Below, one piece after another: positions 16,741-57,514 of a stretch of DNA of 64,000 nucleotides (within the stretch, counting starts at the first letter, position 1; every line of letters begins with the position of its first letter). The position numbers were made by a program, and so were the translations under genes. The DNA lies in the sequence record PQ478073.1, one strand, 5' to 3'. Below the pieces are notes generated by a model, which saw only the letters and a list, made by a program, of their open reading frames with translations, made no database searches and was not told where the DNA came from. Source of the stretch: a phage.

Positions 16741-16828
16741 AGACTAAAAAAGATTAAATTAAACTAATTTTTATATTCTCTATAGTTTCATAAATATTTC
16801 TATAATACATCTATTAAAAGGGAATGTT

Positions 16829-23952: not shown

Positions 23953-25128
23953 ATGTCACAACTACTAAATGAATCCAAATGGGTAGCAGTAAAAGAGAAA
24001 CTAGTTGAAGGTCTACAGGGTACTCGTAAGTCTGTAATGGAAACTGTTCTTGATAACCATCGTAAAGTTATGCTAACTGAATCCGCAACTTCTGGTGCAA
24101 CTACCGCTGGTAACATCGCTACTCTAAACAAAGTGATTCTACCAATTATGCGTCGTGTAATGCCAACCGTTATTGCTAACGAAATCATCGGTGTTCAACC
24201 AATGACTGGTCCAGTTGGTCAGATCCACACCCTACGTGTGCAATATGCTGATAACGCACCTGGTGTTATCGCTGGTGAAGAAATGCTTTCTCCATACAAA
24301 ATCGCTAAATCCTACTCTGGTGATCTAAATGCGGATAATAGCAACCCACAAGCTGCTCCTACTAGCCAACTAGAAGGTACTATGGGTCGTCGCGTTAACA
24401 TCCGTATTCTACGTGAAACTGTTGAAGCGAAATCTCGTCGTCTATCTGCACGTTGGACTGTTGAATCTGCACAAGATGCTCAATCCCAACATGGTGTTGA
24501 CGTTGAAGCAGAACTAATGGCTGCAATCGCTCAAGAAGTTACCGTAGAAATCGACCAAGAGCTACTAAGCCGTCTACGTGCACTACCTGGTGCTGCTGCT
24601 GTAACTTATGACCAATCTAAAGTTACTGGTGTTGCAACCTTCGTTGGTGATGAGCACGCTGCTCTAGCAACTCTAATTAACCGTCAAGCAAACGAAGTTG
24701 CTCGTCGTACTAAGCGTGGTGCTGCAAACTGGGCTGTTGTTTCCCCAACTGCACTAACCATTCTACAATCTGCTACTACTTCTAGCTTTGCACGTACCAC
24801 TGAAGGTACTTTCGAAGCACCAACTAACGTTAAGTTTGTAGGTACTCTAAACAGCACTATGCGTATTTTTGTTGATACTTATGCAAGTGATGCAGAAGAT
24901 ATTCTAATTGGTTATAAAGGTAATGCAGAAACTGATGCTGGTGTGTTCTATTGCCCATACATCCCACTAATGGCTTCCGGTACTGTAATGGACCCTAACA
25001 CTGGGGAATTGGTCACAACTTTCTTAACCAGGTATGGTTATGTTCAGTTGACCGATAGCACCAGTTCACTAGGTAACGCTGCGGACTACTACAGCAAAAT
25101 CGCTATCAAAAACGTTACTTTCATGTAA
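23953..25128 (+). CDS. 23: major capsid protein, gp23/gp24 family
   Basis: VIANEIIGVQPMTGPVGQIHTLRVQY, VEAKSRRLSARWTVESAQD and IGYKGNAETDAGVFYCPY match recalled T4 gp23; strong high-expression codon bias; TATAAATA at 23900. Confidence 0.85.
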   Translation: MSQLLNESKWVAVKEKLVEGLQGTRKSVMETVLDNHRKVMLTESATSGATTAGNIATLNKVILPIMRRVMPTVIANEIIGVQPMTGPVGQIHTLRVQYADNAPGVIAGEEMLSPYKIAKSYSGDLNADNSNPQAAPTSQLEGTMGRRVNIRILRETVEAKSRRLSARWTVESAQDAQSQHGVDVEAELMAAIAQEVTVEIDQELLSRLRALPGAAAVTYDQSKVTGVATFVGDEHAALATLINRQANEVARRTKRGAANWAVVSPTALTILQSATTSSFARTTEGTFEAPTNVKFVGTLNSTMRIFVDTYASDAEDILIGYKGNAETDAGVFYCPYIPLMASGTVMDPNTGELVTTFLTRYGYVQLTDSTSSLGNAADYYSKIAIKNVTFM

Positions 25129-25174
25129 TTGTAATAGATTTAAAAGATTTAATCAAAAAAAAATAAAAACAATA

Positions 25175-25204
25175 GGGACTCTTCGGAGTCCCTTTTCTTT
25201 TTAT
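25175..25204 (+). terminator. intrinsic terminator after major capsid gene
   Basis: GGGACTC-ttcg-GAGTCCC then TTTTCTTTTTATT. Confidence 0.65.
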
Positions 25205-25214
25205 TAAAAAACCC

Positions 25215-25243
25215 TTGACACAATGTTCTGGAATGTATATAAT
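25215..25243 (+). promoter_or_regulatory. consensus sigma70 promoter (TTGACA-17-TATAAT)
   Basis: Perfect -35 and -10 hexamers with 17-bp spacer, 32 nt upstream of ATG at 25276. Confidence 0.6.
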
Positions 25244-25275
25244 ACGCACATACACGAAAATAAAGAGACAAAATT

Positions 25276-26373
25276 ATGCCAAACGTAAGTATCAACAAAG
25301 AAGAGTTTATCAGCAAAATGACTGCTAAGTATGGTGAATTTGATTTCAGTACTTTAGTATTCAAAGCAAGTAAGACAACAGTGAAATGTAACAAGTGTGG
25401 AAAAGAAAACACCAAACCTGCACTTCGTCACATTGCATGTACATGTGCATCATGTTATTCAAACATGTCACAACGTTCAAACAACGACACATTCATCAGT
25501 ACTATAGAAACTAAATTTGGAAAAGATAAATTCAAATTTGATAAACTAAATTACACTAATGCTATATCAAAAGTAACAATTTTCTGCACAGATGAAGATC
25601 ACAATGATTACTTTGAAATTACACCCAATAAATTTCTTTCTGGTAAAGGATGCCCCGTATGTAATAAAAATGAAGCATACAGTACTGAAGAGTTCAAAGA
25701 AAAAGTAAAAGATAATTATGGTGATTTATTGGATTTAACTAACACGGTGTATGTAAATCAAAAAACTAAAGTAACTGTGTATTGTAACGCAGGTAATCAT
25801 GAATGGACAGTTGATCCAAAAACTTTACTTGTTGGTAAGACTGGATGTGGTACATGCTCCGGTAAAGGCGGTCGAAGTACTGAACGTTTCATTGAACTTG
25901 TGTCGCCTATCCATAACCATAAGTATGATTATAGCTTGGTGGATTACAAGACTAGTGATGAACATGTGGATATTATTTGTCCTGAACATGGTGTCTTTAA
26001 ACAAATACCCAAATCTCATATGGCAGGAAGAGGATGTCCATCATGTGGTGAGTATGGTTATCAACCATCAAAGCCTGGATATTTCTATGTACAAAAACTA
26101 TCTAATAACTCAAAAGTCGTTTACAAATACGGAATTACCGGAGACATGAAGAGACGAATTCATGAACAAAGTCGCAATTCTGAGTTCGAGCATGAATTAC
26201 TGGTAGAACGTTACTTTGAGGATGGTAATAAACCATTATTATTGGAAAAGTTTATCAAGCAATACATTGAAAGTGGTGTTGTAAGTACTGAAGAGTTACC
26301 GTCAGGATTTACTGAAACATTTGATGCTAAGTATCTTGAAAGTGTTTTAGAAATTGTAAATACTTTTAAGTAA
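25276..26373 (+). CDS. zinc-ribbon repeat protein with C-terminal T5orf172 (GIY-YIG-like) domain
   Basis: Five CxxC modules (CNKCG, GCPVCN, GCGTCS, GCPSCG...) then GYFYV...VYKYGIT...RR; perfect TTGACA-17-TATAAT upstream. Confidence 0.55.
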   Translation: MPNVSINKEEFISKMTAKYGEFDFSTLVFKASKTTVKCNKCGKENTKPALRHIACTCASCYSNMSQRSNNDTFISTIETKFGKDKFKFDKLNYTNAISKVTIFCTDEDHNDYFEITPNKFLSGKGCPVCNKNEAYSTEEFKEKVKDNYGDLLDLTNTVYVNQKTKVTVYCNAGNHEWTVDPKTLLVGKTGCGTCSGKGGRSTERFIELVSPIHNHKYDYSLVDYKTSDEHVDIICPEHGVFKQIPKSHMAGRGCPSCGEYGYQPSKPGYFYVQKLSNNSKVVYKYGITGDMKRRIHEQSRNSEFEHELLVERYFEDGNKPLLLEKFIKQYIESGVVSTEELPSGFTETFDAKYLESVLEIVNTFK

Positions 26374-26396
26374 ACAATCTAAAGGAGTTGACACGG

Positions 26397-26747
26397 ATGT
26401 TAACTGTATACAAATTTAACAAAGAAGAGTACTTAAAGAGTCAGTACTCAAATATAGAAATAAATGTTCCTTATGGTACGTTAGTTGGATATGATGAAGC
26501 CACTGAAACATTGTATTATAATGATGATAGATTGGATTATAGTTTAGATTCATTCATTGAAGATATACTTAATACACATACTGAAGATATGTTGTATGAA
26601 GAATACATAGACCATTATAGAGAACGTATGTCGGTGCTGCATTCTGATGCTCCTGTACTAAACATAGCACAAGAACCATCGGAATTTCAGCCACATAATC
26701 CTTTTCAACGTTTAATTGATATTGGTTTAAAATTCACTATTAGTTGA
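26397..26747 (+). CDS. hypothetical acidic protein
   Basis: AAAGGAG RBS 9 nt upstream of ATG at 26397. Confidence 0.5.
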   Translation: MLTVYKFNKEEYLKSQYSNIEINVPYGTLVGYDEATETLYYNDDRLDYSLDSFIEDILNTHTEDMLYEEYIDHYRERMSVLHSDAPVLNIAQEPSEFQPHNPFQRLIDIGLKFTIS

Positions 26748-26786
26748 TAGATAAATATCTCCATATTAATGATGGAGATTGAATCT

Positions 26787-27095
26787 ATGTCACAGATATG
26801 TTATGTTATAATAAACTCTGCATGGCCTGACTATGTTAAGATTGGTTTCACTTCTAAATCTGAAATGACAGAGCGTTTGAGAACGTATCAGACAGCTACC
26901 CCGTTTCGTGATTTTGAAGTTTATCATGAAGTTCACTTTGAAGACGCACGTTTAGCTGAAAAAGAGATACATAAAAGGCTTAAACAAATGAATGCAACTA
27001 GACAACCAAACACAGAGTGGTTTAAAATGTCTAAAAAGATAGCAGCAAACATCATTGATTCTGTGTGGGATGATATGGATAACGACTTGCTATAG
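26787..27095 (+). CDS. T5orf172-domain protein (GIY-YIG-like)
   Basis: CYVIINSAWPDYVKIGFT...ERLRTY...EWF. Confidence 0.55.
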   Translation: MSQICYVIINSAWPDYVKIGFTSKSEMTERLRTYQTATPFRDFEVYHEVHFEDARLAEKEIHKRLKQMNATRQPNTEWFKMSKKIAANIIDSVWDDMDNDLL

Positions 27096-27135
27096 GAATA
27101 AATATAGTATATATTAATCATAAAGGGATTTATAC

Positions 27136-28746
27136 ATGAGCATAAGTTTTAATAACCCATTGGATACAATGACCAGTACTGGTGCTAATGGATCTTTAGA
27201 ACTAATAGTGCTTGGTGGTACACCAACTAACCCAAGACCTATTCGTTTTAATTCGTCATCAGTTATTATACCAGTACAAACGTTACCTACTGGTGAACAA
27301 GGTGCAATGGTTTTTGATCGAAGCGAATTAGTTTTGAAGTATCATAACGGTACAAGTTGGATTGCAGTATATGATACTGATACTATTTTGGAACCAATTA
27401 GAATTTCATTAGATGAAGTAAACAGAAAATTAAATTTAAAAGTAGAAAGTGTAACATACAGTAGCAGTACTGTTCCTAGTGCAAGTATTAGTGGAACAAA
27501 CTTAAACATTGTATTCCCTACTGCTTCTAGTGGTGGTTCTGGACCAACTGGTCTTTACACTTCACTTAAACCTGGTGCTATTACACAATATTCATTGACT
27601 TCTGGTCAATCTGTTGCTAGTATACGTGAACAAATGTCAGGGCAATCGAATGGACAAAGTGGACGAAACGGTTCACAAGGTGCTCCGTGGAAAACGTCTG
27701 ACGGTTGGTGTTTTGCTGATGGTATGTGGTGGCAATGGGAGGGGGAAAATGGTACAATTACCAAACAAGTACCAAACCTTAACCAAAACGCGTATTTAAA
27801 AGGTATAACAACATCAGGTGTAACTAAAACTGATAGTGTTATTGGTAGTAGTGGTAACATTAGTGGAACTGTATTGAGTGTTGCCCAGTTACCATCACAC
27901 TCATTTAGTTTTAGTGGAACCACTGGTGCTGCTGGTCGTCATGGTCATAGTCAAGCACTAAAAGGTATGGACCGTAGTGGTCTAAATGCGTTAACTTCAA
28001 GTAATGATAACGGTATACCAACTGTAATCAATAACATTAACGAAGCACCAGACCACATTCACTCATTTAGTGGAAACACTAACACACTTGGTGGAAACCA
28101 ACCACACTATCATGGTATTAGCAACATTGATGTGGAACACTTTAACGTTGCATACCTATATAACATTGCTGAATCTAACGTCGCATTGAGTGAAAAAGTT
28201 GCAAACACTCGTTATGTACTAAAAACTGGTGATACAATGACTGGTTCATTGACTATTGCAAACAGTGCGTCAATTAAGTCAAATGATACATCATTAGTTC
28301 TATATTTCCGTAACGCAAGCGGTGGTGAGCGTGCGGCAGTGTATCATAACTCTTCAAATAATACATTGAGATTACGTTCCGGTGGAGCAGAAGTTACTGT
28401 AAACTCTTCTGGTACTTTAGCTGCTCCATCATTAACTGTTTCTAACAACTCAGCTACTGTTGGTGGTAAAAATATTGTTCGTTCAATTAACGGTACTGCT
28501 GCTGATGCTAGTGGCAACGTTACTTTGCAAATTAGTACTAATAACGTACAAAGTATTCGTTTGAGTGCACGTATTGAAACAAGTAAAATACCTGATTCTT
28601 CATGGACATATACACCAGAAGGTGCATTTATGGATGGCGTATGGATTTCTGTTAATGGTAGTTCAGGCACTCACTTAGAACGAATTAGTTATCGCTATGT
28701 TCAAATGCAAATAAATGGTAACTGGGAAACAGTACGTCAACAATAA
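27136..28746 (+). CDS. tail fibre protein (receptor-binding, HxH motifs)
   Basis: 536 aa; S/T/G/N-rich; repeated HxH motifs (RHGHS, DHIHSF, HYHG) as in T4 fibre tips. Confidence 0.65.
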   Translation: MSISFNNPLDTMTSTGANGSLELIVLGGTPTNPRPIRFNSSSVIIPVQTLPTGEQGAMVFDRSELVLKYHNGTSWIAVYDTDTILEPIRISLDEVNRKLNLKVESVTYSSSTVPSASISGTNLNIVFPTASSGGSGPTGLYTSLKPGAITQYSLTSGQSVASIREQMSGQSNGQSGRNGSQGAPWKTSDGWCFADGMWWQWEGENGTITKQVPNLNQNAYLKGITTSGVTKTDSVIGSSGNISGTVLSVAQLPSHSFSFSGTTGAAGRHGHSQALKGMDRSGLNALTSSNDNGIPTVINNINEAPDHIHSFSGNTNTLGGNQPHYHGISNIDVEHFNVAYLYNIAESNVALSEKVANTRYVLKTGDTMTGSLTIANSASIKSNDTSLVLYFRNASGGERAAVYHNSSNNTLRLRSGGAEVTVNSSGTLAAPSLTVSNNSATVGGKNIVRSINGTAADASGNVTLQISTNNVQSIRLSARIETSKIPDSSWTYTPEGAFMDGVWISVNGSSGTHLERISYRYVQMQINGNWETVRQQ

Positions 28747-29298: not shown

Positions 29299-29302
29299 TA
29301 AG

Positions 29303-29337
29303 TCATCTCACCGATTGTGGTGAGGTGACATTTTTTT
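29303..29337 (+). terminator. intrinsic terminator after fibre chaperone gene
   Basis: TCATCTCACC-gattgt-GGTGAGGTGA hairpin then T7. Confidence 0.5.
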
Positions 29338-29362
29338 GAAAACACACATGGAGAAATACAAA

Positions 29363-29665
29363 ATGGCTAAATCTAAAAAAGAAGTTAAAGTTGAAATTCG
29401 TGATCTAAACGATGAACAACGTAAACGTCTCGGTGACGCACTTAACAACATTGTTGTACAACTAACTTTCATTGATGATACCAAAGCATCCTTATCTGAT
29501 TTTGTTTCTAGTGTTTCTGATGAACTTGGTATCGATGCATCTGATATCAAACAAGCTGCACAACGTATGTACAAAGGTGATTACTTTGACAAACAAAATA
29601 AACTCGATAATATCGAAACTATTCTTAGTGTTACTAATAATCTTCCACAAGCAGATGATTACTAA
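29363..29665 (+). CDS. small DNA-binding protein, possibly DsbA-like
   Basis: DELGIDASD...Y segment resembles recalled T4 DsbA DELGVDGKMF; GGAG RBS; terminator follows. Confidence 0.3.
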   Translation: MAKSKKEVKVEIRDLNDEQRKRLGDALNNIVVQLTFIDDTKASLSDFVSSVSDELGIDASDIKQAAQRMYKGDYFDKQNKLDNIETILSVTNNLPQADDY

Positions 29666-29687: not shown

Positions 29688-29716
29688 AGCCTCCAATGAC
29701 GGAGGCTTTCTTTTTA
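29688..29716 (+). terminator. intrinsic terminator
   Basis: AGCCTCC-aatgac-GGAGGCT then TTCTTTTT. Confidence 0.6.
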
Positions 29717-56622: not shown

Positions 56623-56840
56623 TGAGAACAGTACTAAATGTGCATGGTCACAATACAATGGTTTCTAATGAAGAATATAAACTATTACAAAAGATAAAAG
56701 CACGCGGTACTGTTCCAGTTGAAAAGGTAAATGAATATTATCAGGAATTAGCTGATAAGATGGTATCACGTGGTGTTCTAAATAAAATAGAAAATGATGA
56801 CGGTACTGAATCTTACCAAACAGTTAGGAGTAGTAAATGA
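56622..56840 (+). CDS. hypothetical protein
   Basis: 72-aa ORF, start overlaps upstream stop. Confidence 0.45.
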   Translation: MRTVLNVHGHNTMVSNEEYKLLQKIKARGTVPVEKVNEYYQELADKMVSRGVLNKIENDDGTESYQTVRSSK

Positions 56841-57514
56841 ATTACGAATATGATCAACAATCAGTTAATCAGATGGCTGATTTGTTAAGTGGATTGAATG
56901 ACATTGAAGCTGGTGAAACACATAACGCATCGGGAGTTCCATATAAAACTGGTGGTGATATCGGTGCTATGGCTTCTATTTTAACTTCATTAAATGAAGC
57001 AGGTATGGATTATGGGGTTGACCCAGAGCAACAACATCCACAAGTTGTTCCATACTATGCACCATACAACGAACATATGCTTGGACATCAATCAGTACAA
57101 CCTGTAGTTCAACGAACTCCAGCTAAACCAAAAACTAATTGGAGTTTAGTGGAAGAAAAAGTACAAGGTACTAAATCTACTAAAGTTTATAGCATTAAGT
57201 GTAATCATAGTTCACAAATTATTATGAATAATATTATGATGTATGAAGCAGCACTTACATTAGTTAATCTTCTCAATGAAGGAAGAATGTTGACAGATGC
57301 AAAAGTACTTGGTATAATCAGTTCGGGTCTTCAATACACGAATGTGATTAGTGAAGCATTGAAAGCAGCCCAGAAACGTCAACGCGTACTTAATGAATCG
57401 AAGTATGATGAAGCAAAAGATTTAGATATAATTATTGCAGAAAAGAAAGCTGAAGCGTATAAATTAAAAGAGCGTGTATTAAACTTTCTAAAAGGCGAAG
57501 GTTATATAAAGTAA
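56837..57514 (+). CDS. hypothetical protein
   Basis: 225-aa ORF. Confidence 0.5.
   Translation: MNYEYDQQSVNQMADLLSGLNDIEAGETHNASGVPYKTGGDIGAMASILTSLNEAGMDYGVDPEQQHPQVVPYYAPYNEHMLGHQSVQPVVQRTPAKPKTNWSLVEEKVQGTKSTKVYSIKCNHSSQIIMNNIMMYEAALTLVNLLNEGRMLTDAKVLGIISSGLQYTNVISEALKAAQKRQRVLNESKYDEAKDLDIIIAEKKAEAYKLKERVLNFLKGEGYIK

Follow-up and report, generated by a model that had tools for sequence, protein, structure and literature searches.

Three open reading frames (ORFs) lie between the genes for the major capsid protein and the tail fibre of a jumbo coliphage (sequence record PQ478073.1), and our analysis of a 64,000-nucleotide (nt) stretch of this DNA (henceforth the window, to which all positions refer unless another locus is named) indicates that the three do not belong together. 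Very probably the region consists of two unrelated things: a homing-endonuclease cassette (25204-26396), comprising a promoter, ORF1 and a short 3′ junction, and two resident genes, ORF2 and ORF3 (26397-27095). An earlier note on this DNA had rightly placed the locus between capsid and fibre genes and had seen in it a selfish insertion resembling a homing endonuclease; the description fits ORF1 and its promoter, which occupy a variable slot, but not ORF2 and ORF3, which are kept in other lineages. Coordinates are collected in Table 1.

The phage is of the Asteriusvirus type and belongs to the 121Q/PBECO4 group of jumbo coliphages: 66 phage records match 5.4 kb around the locus, the top matches being Asteriusvirus jumbo coliphages, with nucleotide matches over this region of 98.1% for CRJP21 and 95-98% for UB, JP4, 121Q and PBECO4. 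Comparison with such relatives defines the cassette. PBECO4 and fEgEco12 lack exactly the sequence from ∼25204 to 26396, that is, from the end of the terminator T-run to just before the start codon of ORF2; SD-6_S16 also lacks the cassette, and all three genomes retain ORF2 and ORF3. The earlier note had proposed to look for relatives with an empty capsid-to-fibre junction: these three are empty of ORF1, but ORF2 and ORF3 stay at the junction. The flanks of PBECO4 and SD-6_S16 are 98.6-100% identical to those of the window, the capsid 3′ tract excepted. Where the cassette is present it is single-copy and always at the capsid-ORF2 locus; 14 phage records cover at least 80% of it, and nucleotide identity over the whole cassette is 99.7% in CRJP21, 96.5% in Turkey3 and 87.4% in 121Q.

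The interval between the terminator and ORF2, which we refer to as the slot, holds different genes in different phages. A 365-amino-acid (aa) gene is found in the window, CRJP21, 121Q, UB, SP27, WPEC3, vB_Ec-M-J and Turkey3 (A4: 368 aa); alleles of 306/307 aa occur in E9.1 and slurp01, of 332 aa in SHEFM2K and of 406 aa in Turkey5. UE-S1 (552 aa; locus L005, 1621-3279) and ph0011 (532 aa; locus L008, 1672-3270) carry a DUF7487 plus REase_MTES_1575 protein instead: a different nuclease family, so that the site evidently accepts unrelated endonuclease genes. A CapR-type gene is present in RaK2 and SE_PL, and the slot is empty in PBECO4, SD-6_S16, fEgEco12, CBB, Hallingskeid and one metagenomic relative. 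CMSTMSU, with a seemingly empty slot in an unverified, frameshifted assembly, was left out of the comparison.

Table 1. Features of the capsid-to-fibre region (positions in the window).
Feature	Position	Strand	Remarks
Major capsid protein gene (T4 gp23-like)	23953-25128	+	Essential resident upstream of the slot; Pfam Gp23 1.3e-89, PHROG 138
Mosaic, co-conversion-like tract	24853-25203	+	Capsid 3′ end and intergenic terminator region
Intrinsic-terminator-like hairpin of the capsid gene	25174-25193	+	8-bp stem, T-run to ∼25203; left edge of the variable slot
Mobile cassette	25204-26396	+	Promoter, homing-endonuclease gene and 3′ junction; from absent/present comparison with relatives
Consensus sigma-70-type promoter, TTGACA-17-TATAAT	25215-25243	+	A/T-rich upstream stretch; cassette component
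ORF1, putative free-standing homing endonuclease	25276-26373	+	365 aa; orthologue of 121Q gp604
Four tandem zinc-finger modules of ORF1, CapR/DUF723/DUF4379 type	25297-26061	+	aa 8-70, 71-136, 137-201, 202-262
T5orf172-like (GIY-YIG-fold) nuclease domain of ORF1	26071-26370	+	C-terminal, aa 266-365
Cassette 3′ junction	26374-26396	+	ACAATCTAAAGGAGTTGACACGG; replaces native sequence upstream of ORF2
ORF2, resident	26397-26747	+	116 aa, acidic, isoelectric point (pI) 4.36; PHROG 15724
ATAAATA, late-promoter-like motif	26751-26757	+	Upstream of ORF3
ORF3, minimal stand-alone T5orf172 domain	26787-27095	+	102 aa (108 aa from alternative ATG 26769)
Tail-fibre gene, resident downstream neighbour	27136-28746	+	PHROG 13229 1e-273; ATAAATA motif at 27098

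The right-hand edge of the cassette carries a signature of its own. The junction TAAACAATCTAAAGGAGTTGACACGGATG is common to the T5orf172-type alleles (365, 306/307 and 332 aa) of close relatives, with two substitutions in the 3′ junction of Turkey3 and vB_Ec-M-J, and the junction now supplies the ribosome-binding site of ORF2. The empty sites of PBECO4 and fEgEco12 have a different sequence, with TCTAAATACA, upstream of ORF2. In SD-6_S16 (locus L015, 1729-1803) the ORF2 start codon directly follows the terminator T-run: compared with PBECO4 the interval has 45 bp less, and the TCTAAATACA element is lost. Two other kinds of mobile element were considered for the locus and rejected. ORF1 lies between genes, with the capsid gene and ORF2 both complete in its absence, as would not be expected of an intron- or intein-encoded endonuclease; Rfam returned no intron family at E ≤1 in 24500-27500 and no known RNA at threshold. 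Nor is the cassette a transposon or insertion sequence: there are no direct or inverted repeats at its ends and no transposase domain.

Of particular interest is the mosaic nature of the flanking sequence. The capsid gene of the window has no mismatch to the cassette-less PBECO4 and SD-6_S16 in its first 900 nt (23953-24852), whereas over the last 276 nt there are ∼11 mismatches per 100 nt to both, a divergence that reaches as far as the slot; within these 276 nt PBECO4 differs at 31 positions and SD-6_S16 at 30, in every case synonymously. On the 3′ side of the cassette the count returns to 0-6 mismatches per 100 nt. The comparison with Turkey3 has the opposite form: from 24953 to ∼26150, which takes in the capsid 3′ end and most of the cassette, there are just 0-2 mismatches per 100 nt, except in the promoter and 5′-untranslated stretch (25153-25352), where there are 8. 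The modules of ORF1 are 97-100% identical to those of Turkey3, while the capsid gene of that phage is 94%, ORF2 and ORF3 81-82% and the fibre gene 73-83% identical. CRJP21 hardly differs from the window as far as 26552 (4 mismatches) and is divergent beyond. A near-identical cassette on divergent backbones implies recent transfer.

Diversity among ten closely related genomes, expressed as the mean pairwise difference, peaks on the slot and decays to both sides. It is at most 0.009 in the first 900 nt of the capsid gene, 0.06-0.07 at the 3′ end of that gene, 0.14-0.34 in the slot, 0.01-0.075 in ORF2 and ORF3, and about 0 in the fibre gene from about 27950. The window allele of ORF1 is itself a mosaic: its first modules resemble those of 121Q and Turkey3, the fourth zinc-finger module agrees with its slurp01 counterpart at 100% identity, and the remaining slurp01 modules are ∼60% identical. 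We regard the cassette as mobile because it is present or absent at one site, because its alleles turn over, because its flanks are mosaic and because its identity between genomes is discordant with that of the backbone.

The left-hand edge is defined by the terminator hairpin of the capsid gene, which is kept in all relatives compared, other genera included. As the earlier note reported, a perfect TTGACA-17-TATAAT promoter follows this terminator; it lies 33 nt upstream of the ATG of ORF1. It is not the only such site in the window, as had been claimed, since a second occurs at 57290-57318 (plus strand) inside an ORF (56837-57514), where it may have arisen by chance or serve as an internal promoter; the site at 25215 is, however, the sole intergenic one. 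By chance 0.12 perfect sites would be expected in 64 kb, against the two observed. A promoter of this kind travels with the gene: the five relatives with a 365-aa allele that were checked have TTGACA or TTTACA-17-TATAAT, the 306/307-aa alleles TTGACA-17-AATAAT and the ph0011 allele TTGACA-18-TATGCT. A sigma-70-like promoter accompanies every checked T5orf172-type allele of 306-365 aa and the ph0011 allele, with the exception of the 332-aa allele of SHEFM2K, where the match is weak; UE-S1 has none. No sigma-70-like site was found at the three empty Asteriusvirus sites (PBECO4, SD-6_S16 and fEgEco12). By these alignments the sigma-70 promoter is part of the cassette. The early promoters of CBB, a related phage, have been proposed to be RpoD-like sites with UP-like elements in front (PMC5259590); ORF1, and ORF2 through the junction, would be transcribed from the sigma-70 promoter, with a timing that its consensus suggests to be early.

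ORF1 appears to be a member, putative as the others are, of a family of homing endonuclease genes (HEGs) that combine zinc fingers with a T5orf172 domain and that were described by Barth, Dunham & Seed in 2023 (PMC10448857). In that study 87% of T5orf172 HEGs carry zinc fingers of the CapR/DUF723/DUF4379 type, domain shuffling is common, and 31% of their gene neighbourhoods contain a capsid gene. The earlier note had counted five CxxC zinc-ribbon modules in ORF1: the five CxxC motifs are there (at aa 38, 57, 126, 191 and 254), but they belong to four repeats, not five. Each repeat is ∼60-65 aa long, with a helix-strand-strand-helix arrangement and a ligand set of Cys/His plus CxxC, and an AlphaFold2 (AF2) model of the protein (pLDDT 84.8) shows this unit four times. 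Profile searches of the kind proposed in the note matched both expected families, T5orf172 above threshold in ORF3 (see below) and zinc fingers in ORF1, where Pfam gives DUF4379 at 26.4 bits (cut-off 24.5), CapR at 1.6e-3 and DUF723 at 0.018. In an alignment of homologues the zinc ligands of three modules are invariant (C104, C126, C129, C170, C191, C194, C235, C254 and C257). CapR-type domains bind DNA via their cysteines (Netter et al. 2021, PMC8096241), and the four modules are presumed to form a DNA-recognition array.

The T5orf172 assignment of the C-terminal domain, for which the match of ORF1 itself is below the Pfam threshold, is supported indirectly by its relatives and its fold. Among close homologues of ORF1 (n = 37, 43-88% identity) 16 match T5orf172 (best 5.3e-5) and 15 match MUG113; PHROG 681, ‘endonuclease’, matches ORF1 at 1e-76 over aa 17-364; and a tblastn search with ORF1 returned 959 phage records, one of the matches being to an ICP1 gene that carries the annotation ‘putative homing endonuclease’ (5e-9). 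The beta-beta-alpha-beta-alpha core of the GIY-YIG superfamily is present in this domain as well as in ORF3, and in both proteins the second GIY-YIG motif reads K-x-G rather than Y-x-G. Invariant positions in the ORF1 domain are Y271, K284-x-G286, R293/R294, E297, Q298, H306, E324 and E347; judged by motif position, Y271, R293/R294 and E347, like Y12, R36 and E83 of ORF3, would be the first Tyr, the catalytic Arg and the metal-binding Glu of the superfamily. In the record of CRJP21 the ORF1 orthologue (locus L012, 1876-2973) is mislabelled ‘DNA polymerase II’.

These properties bear on whether ORF1 is still active. HEGs commonly decay after fixation, and it could be supposed that ORF1 is an inactive relic and that the polymorphism at the site stems from deletions and recombination of the ordinary kind in an intergenic hot spot; the score of ORF1 in Pfam T5orf172 is indeed below threshold, and one relative, SD-6_S16, has a small deletion at the site. 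We consider this very unlikely. Those full-length relatives that were examined have an unbroken reading frame, and 14 records cover at least 80% of the cassette. The ratio of non-synonymous to synonymous substitution rates (dN/dS) is ∼0.1, homologues of 43-88% identity all share the catalytic-type residues and the zinc ligands, and the near identity of the cassette on divergent backbones implies recent transfer.

Purifying selection, a strong promoter and a position next to the capsid gene would also suit a domesticated nuclease or repressor that serves the phage in a sequence-specific manner, directed against a satellite, a competitor phage or the capsid locus. The domain families are those of Odn, an anti-satellite nuclease, and of CapR, a satellite protein that represses a capsid operon (PMC8263062, PMC8096241). 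By our assessment such a role for ORF1 is nonetheless improbable: near-isogenic phages live without the gene, unrelated nuclease families replace one another in the slot, the gene is single-copy and at one locus in each relative examined, and co-conversion-like flanks, together with similarity that is discordant with the backbone, are the traces that homing elements leave.

We therefore return to a homing-endonuclease cassette and to how it would spread. In a cell co-infected by a cassette-bearing and a cassette-less phage, ORF1 would be transcribed early by the host RNA polymerase. In the cassette-less genome the zinc-finger array would bind a long target close to where the capsid gene ends, or close to the terminator of that gene, and the nuclease domain would then cut this genome. 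Recombinational repair off the cassette-bearing genome would copy the cassette together with some flanking DNA. Cleavage, target, early timing and homing are thus all steps that we infer.

Several observations weigh against this view of the region. The Pfam T5orf172 profile scores ORF1 at 16.9 bits, below the gathering threshold of 20 (E 0.009). We know of no experimental demonstration of homing for any zinc-finger plus T5orf172 gene, the published members being ‘putative’ HEGs, and the early timing would follow from the promoter consensus only. Nine genomes with the 365-aa allele were compared with three that are empty and six that hold other alleles, in search of polymorphisms that follow the cassette: only columns 24894 and 25053 separate the classes, SP27 has an ‘empty-type’ haplotype, and no target can be named in this way. 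Ordinary recombination at a hot spot could likewise have produced the mosaic flanks. A recent common origin of the nuclease domains of ORF1 and ORF3 is unsupported (hhalign of the family alignments gives a probability of 1.7% and E 0.029). As to the resident pair, searches with ORF2 against Pfam, NCBIfam, PADLOC and Protein Data Bank (PDB) profiles returned nothing, leaving it with no relatives of known function, and RaK2 has no ORF3: at that position stands an unrelated gene of 244 aa, ORF097, for which Pfam gave no match. ORF097 was considered as a divergent ORF3 and rejected (hhalign probability 0.2%).

ORF2 and ORF3 behave differently from the cassette. The order capsid, ORF2, small T5orf172 gene, fibre, small ORF and DNA polymerase is kept in CBB (genus Mimasvirus), the Erwinia phage Hallingskeid, the Salmonella phage SE_PL and a metagenomic relative; RaK2 (genus Alcyoneusvirus; locus L016, 1488-3857) has a 408-aa CapR/DUF723-type endonuclease gene in the slot and an orthologue of ORF2. 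The dN/dS of ORF3 is 0.02-0.03, like that of the capsid gene, and that of ORF2 is mostly 0.03-0.12 within Asteriusvirus. ORF2, the acidic ORF of the earlier note, is confined to RaK2-like jumbo phages (71 phage records). A word-based search returned 12 close relatives and an exhaustive profile search 21 representative clusters among 1.84 billion proteins; Pfam gave no credible match on 10 of the cluster representatives (one weak match was sub-threshold). The published virion proteomes of CBB and phAPEC6 list no orthologue of ORF2 or ORF3.

The second, stand-alone T5orf172 protein is confirmed: ORF3 matches Pfam T5orf172 (PF10544) at 50.3 bits against a threshold of 20 (3.7e-13; profile positions 2-98 of 101), and MUG113 also. 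Its most likely start is 26787 (MSQICYV), because GGAG lies 8 nt upstream and because a product of 102-103 aa is annotated in relatives and found in most orthologues. An alignment of 27 orthologues keeps Y12, K24-x-G26-x-T28, R36, Y40, Q41, T42, E64, E66, E83 and W84. The protein has a pI of 5.33, and its orthologues conserve an acidic-hydrophobic C-terminal tail, DDxENxLL (27072-27095 in the window), which looks like a tail for protein-protein interaction. Searched by sequence against solved structures, ORF3 gave no match; tblastn of ORF1 and of ORF3 against the window revealed no paralogues, and neither detected the other. In the metagenomic contig SRR21686213_1754 (locus L023, 4613-5306), where the slot is empty, an ORF2-like gene (131 aa) and a T5orf172 gene (101 aa) overlap by 8 nt, an arrangement that suggests coupled expression. 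The record of vB_Ec-M-J labels the conserved small T5orf172 gene (locus L006, 4378-4686) ‘homing endonuclease’.

Expression of ORF3 is probably separate from that of the cassette. The motif ATAAATA has been proposed as a late promoter motif in CBB and GAP32 (PMC5259590). On the plus strand of the window 9 of its 13 copies are intergenic, against a non-coding share of only ∼13%; copies at 16790, 20787, 22032, 22692, 23901, 26751, 27098, 40706, 51111 and 55627 lie 18-71 nt upstream of plus-strand ORF starts, and the motif precedes the protease, scaffold-like, capsid, ORF3 and fibre genes. Given the copy upstream of it, ORF3 probably has its own late promoter.

That all three genes form a single accessory island, inserted as a unit under an early promoter and active in host takeover or counter-defence, is extremely unlikely in this light, although some features of the locus invite such a reading. 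The genes are direct neighbours with a common orientation, the plus strand showed no terminator-like site from the promoter to the fibre gene, and ORF2, where a cassette precedes it, is deprived of its native upstream sequence and is probably co-transcribed with ORF1. With PADLOC, moreover, ORF3 partially matches the candidate defence proteins PDC-S57 and PD-Lambda-1; the matches are limited to the shared T5orf172 nuclease domain (positions 3-93 of 212 and 359-438 of 496), and for want of a full-length match identity of ORF3 with either protein was rejected. Against a single unit stands the fact that only ORF1 and its promoter vary: ORF2 and ORF3 are in place with or without ORF1, and in other lineages, and ORF3 combines capsid-like purifying selection with a late-type motif of its own, where the earlier note had one promoter driving all three. 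The note had named occupation of the same site in relatives, with late expression, as the pattern that would speak against an insertion; this is the pattern of ORF2 and ORF3, lateness being suggested by the motif. Gene-order comparison thus largely refutes the three-gene island, and our searches gave no evidence of a host-takeover or counter-defence role.

What the resident pair does can only be guessed at. On account of its conservation, its adjacency to ORF2 and its fold, we tentatively suggest that ORF3 is a nuclease from the same superfamily that serves the phage, possibly acting with ORF2; it might act on DNA without a sequence-recognition domain of its own. A bolder extension ties the two parts of the region together: the slot would be a long-lived landing pad, invaded repeatedly by T5orf172, REase_MTES_1575 and CapR-type nucleases owing to the ORF2-ORF3 pair, with ORF3 domesticated in a two-part system, ORF2 its partner or inhibitor, and incoming cassettes, each of which displaces the native region upstream of ORF2, rewiring the pair from late to early expression. 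We think this decidedly improbable; were it true, carriage of an endonuclease gene would alter the phage's own nuclease programme.

The local gene order is protease, scaffold-like protein, major capsid, ORF1-ORF2-ORF3, tail fibre, fibre-assembly protein, small ORF and DNA polymerase. The 5′ half of the tail-fibre gene has raised divergence at 27253-27500 and 27753-27952 among otherwise near-identical genomes; these patches may be further recombination tracts or host-range variation. Two strong terminator-like hairpins (29302-29329 and 29688-29707, the latter scoring on both strands) flank the small ORF (29336-29665) ahead of the DNA polymerase gene.

Taken on its own, the mobile part of the region is a clear but ordinary example of something already known in kind, and its orthologue in 121Q was already annotated ‘endonuclease’. 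Its value lies in the company it keeps. E. coli phages that differ essentially by the cassette (the window or CRJP21 type against PBECO4 or SD-6_S16) offer a natural test system for T5orf172 homing: a filled and empty pair with a visible co-conversion-like tract in the capsid gene and a defined stretch of ∼400 bp. The variable gene and the conserved small T5orf172 gene are mislabelled in some public records, and annotation stands to gain from telling them apart. The capsid gene, in turn, should be used with caution as a phylogenetic marker in these jumbo phages, given the synonymous mosaic at its 3′ end.

Among known systems, the solved folds closest to ORF3 are small GIY-YIG proteins of the UPF0213/EF2693 type and the structure-specific nucleases Slx1 and HIGLE, at identities of only 13-20%; ORF3 has neither a RING domain nor a known partner, and it is acidic, with a conserved acidic C-terminal tail. 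For ORF1 the nearest counterpart is the same gene at the same site, 121Q gp604 (YP_009102191.1), with orthologues in CRJP21, Turkey3, UB, SP27 and phAPEC6; unlike gp604, the window allele is mosaic. A literature search found no study of gp604 or its orthologues. In the free-standing Seg proteins of phage T4 and the intron-encoded I-TevI, which are GIY-YIG homing endonucleases, the order of domains is the reverse of that in ORF1, whose nuclease is C-terminal, and the DNA-binding part is a helix-turn-helix or minor-groove unit where ORF1 has a zinc-finger array. ORF1 differs also in having Lys at the position of the ‘YIG’ tyrosine (K-x-G), and there is no intron.

ICP1 Odn (Gp88) is a T5orf172 protein that cleaves DNA in vitro and needs a conserved Glu to do so (PMC8263062). 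With this result and the HEG family described in PMC10448857, the statement of the earlier note that the function of T5orf172 in phages is not established no longer fully holds. ORF1 shares with Odn a T5orf172 domain with conserved Arg and Glu; Odn, unlike ORF1, has a RepA_N DNA-binding domain and serves its phage against a satellite (PMC8263062), and no link of ORF1 to a satellite was found. The closest likeness is to the T5orf172 HEGs of ICP1, T5-like and other phages: as in these, tandem zinc-finger modules precede a C-terminal T5orf172 domain (PMC10448857, PMC8096241), and the gene is free-standing beside an essential gene, shows shuffling of modules and sits at a boundary of genetic exchange. 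ORF1 departs from them in its host lineage, a RaK2-like jumbo coliphage not among the enriched lineages named in the part of PMC10448857 consulted, and in its four modules, its sub-threshold Pfam T5orf172 score and the existence of natural empty-site and filled-site genomes with near-identical flanks.

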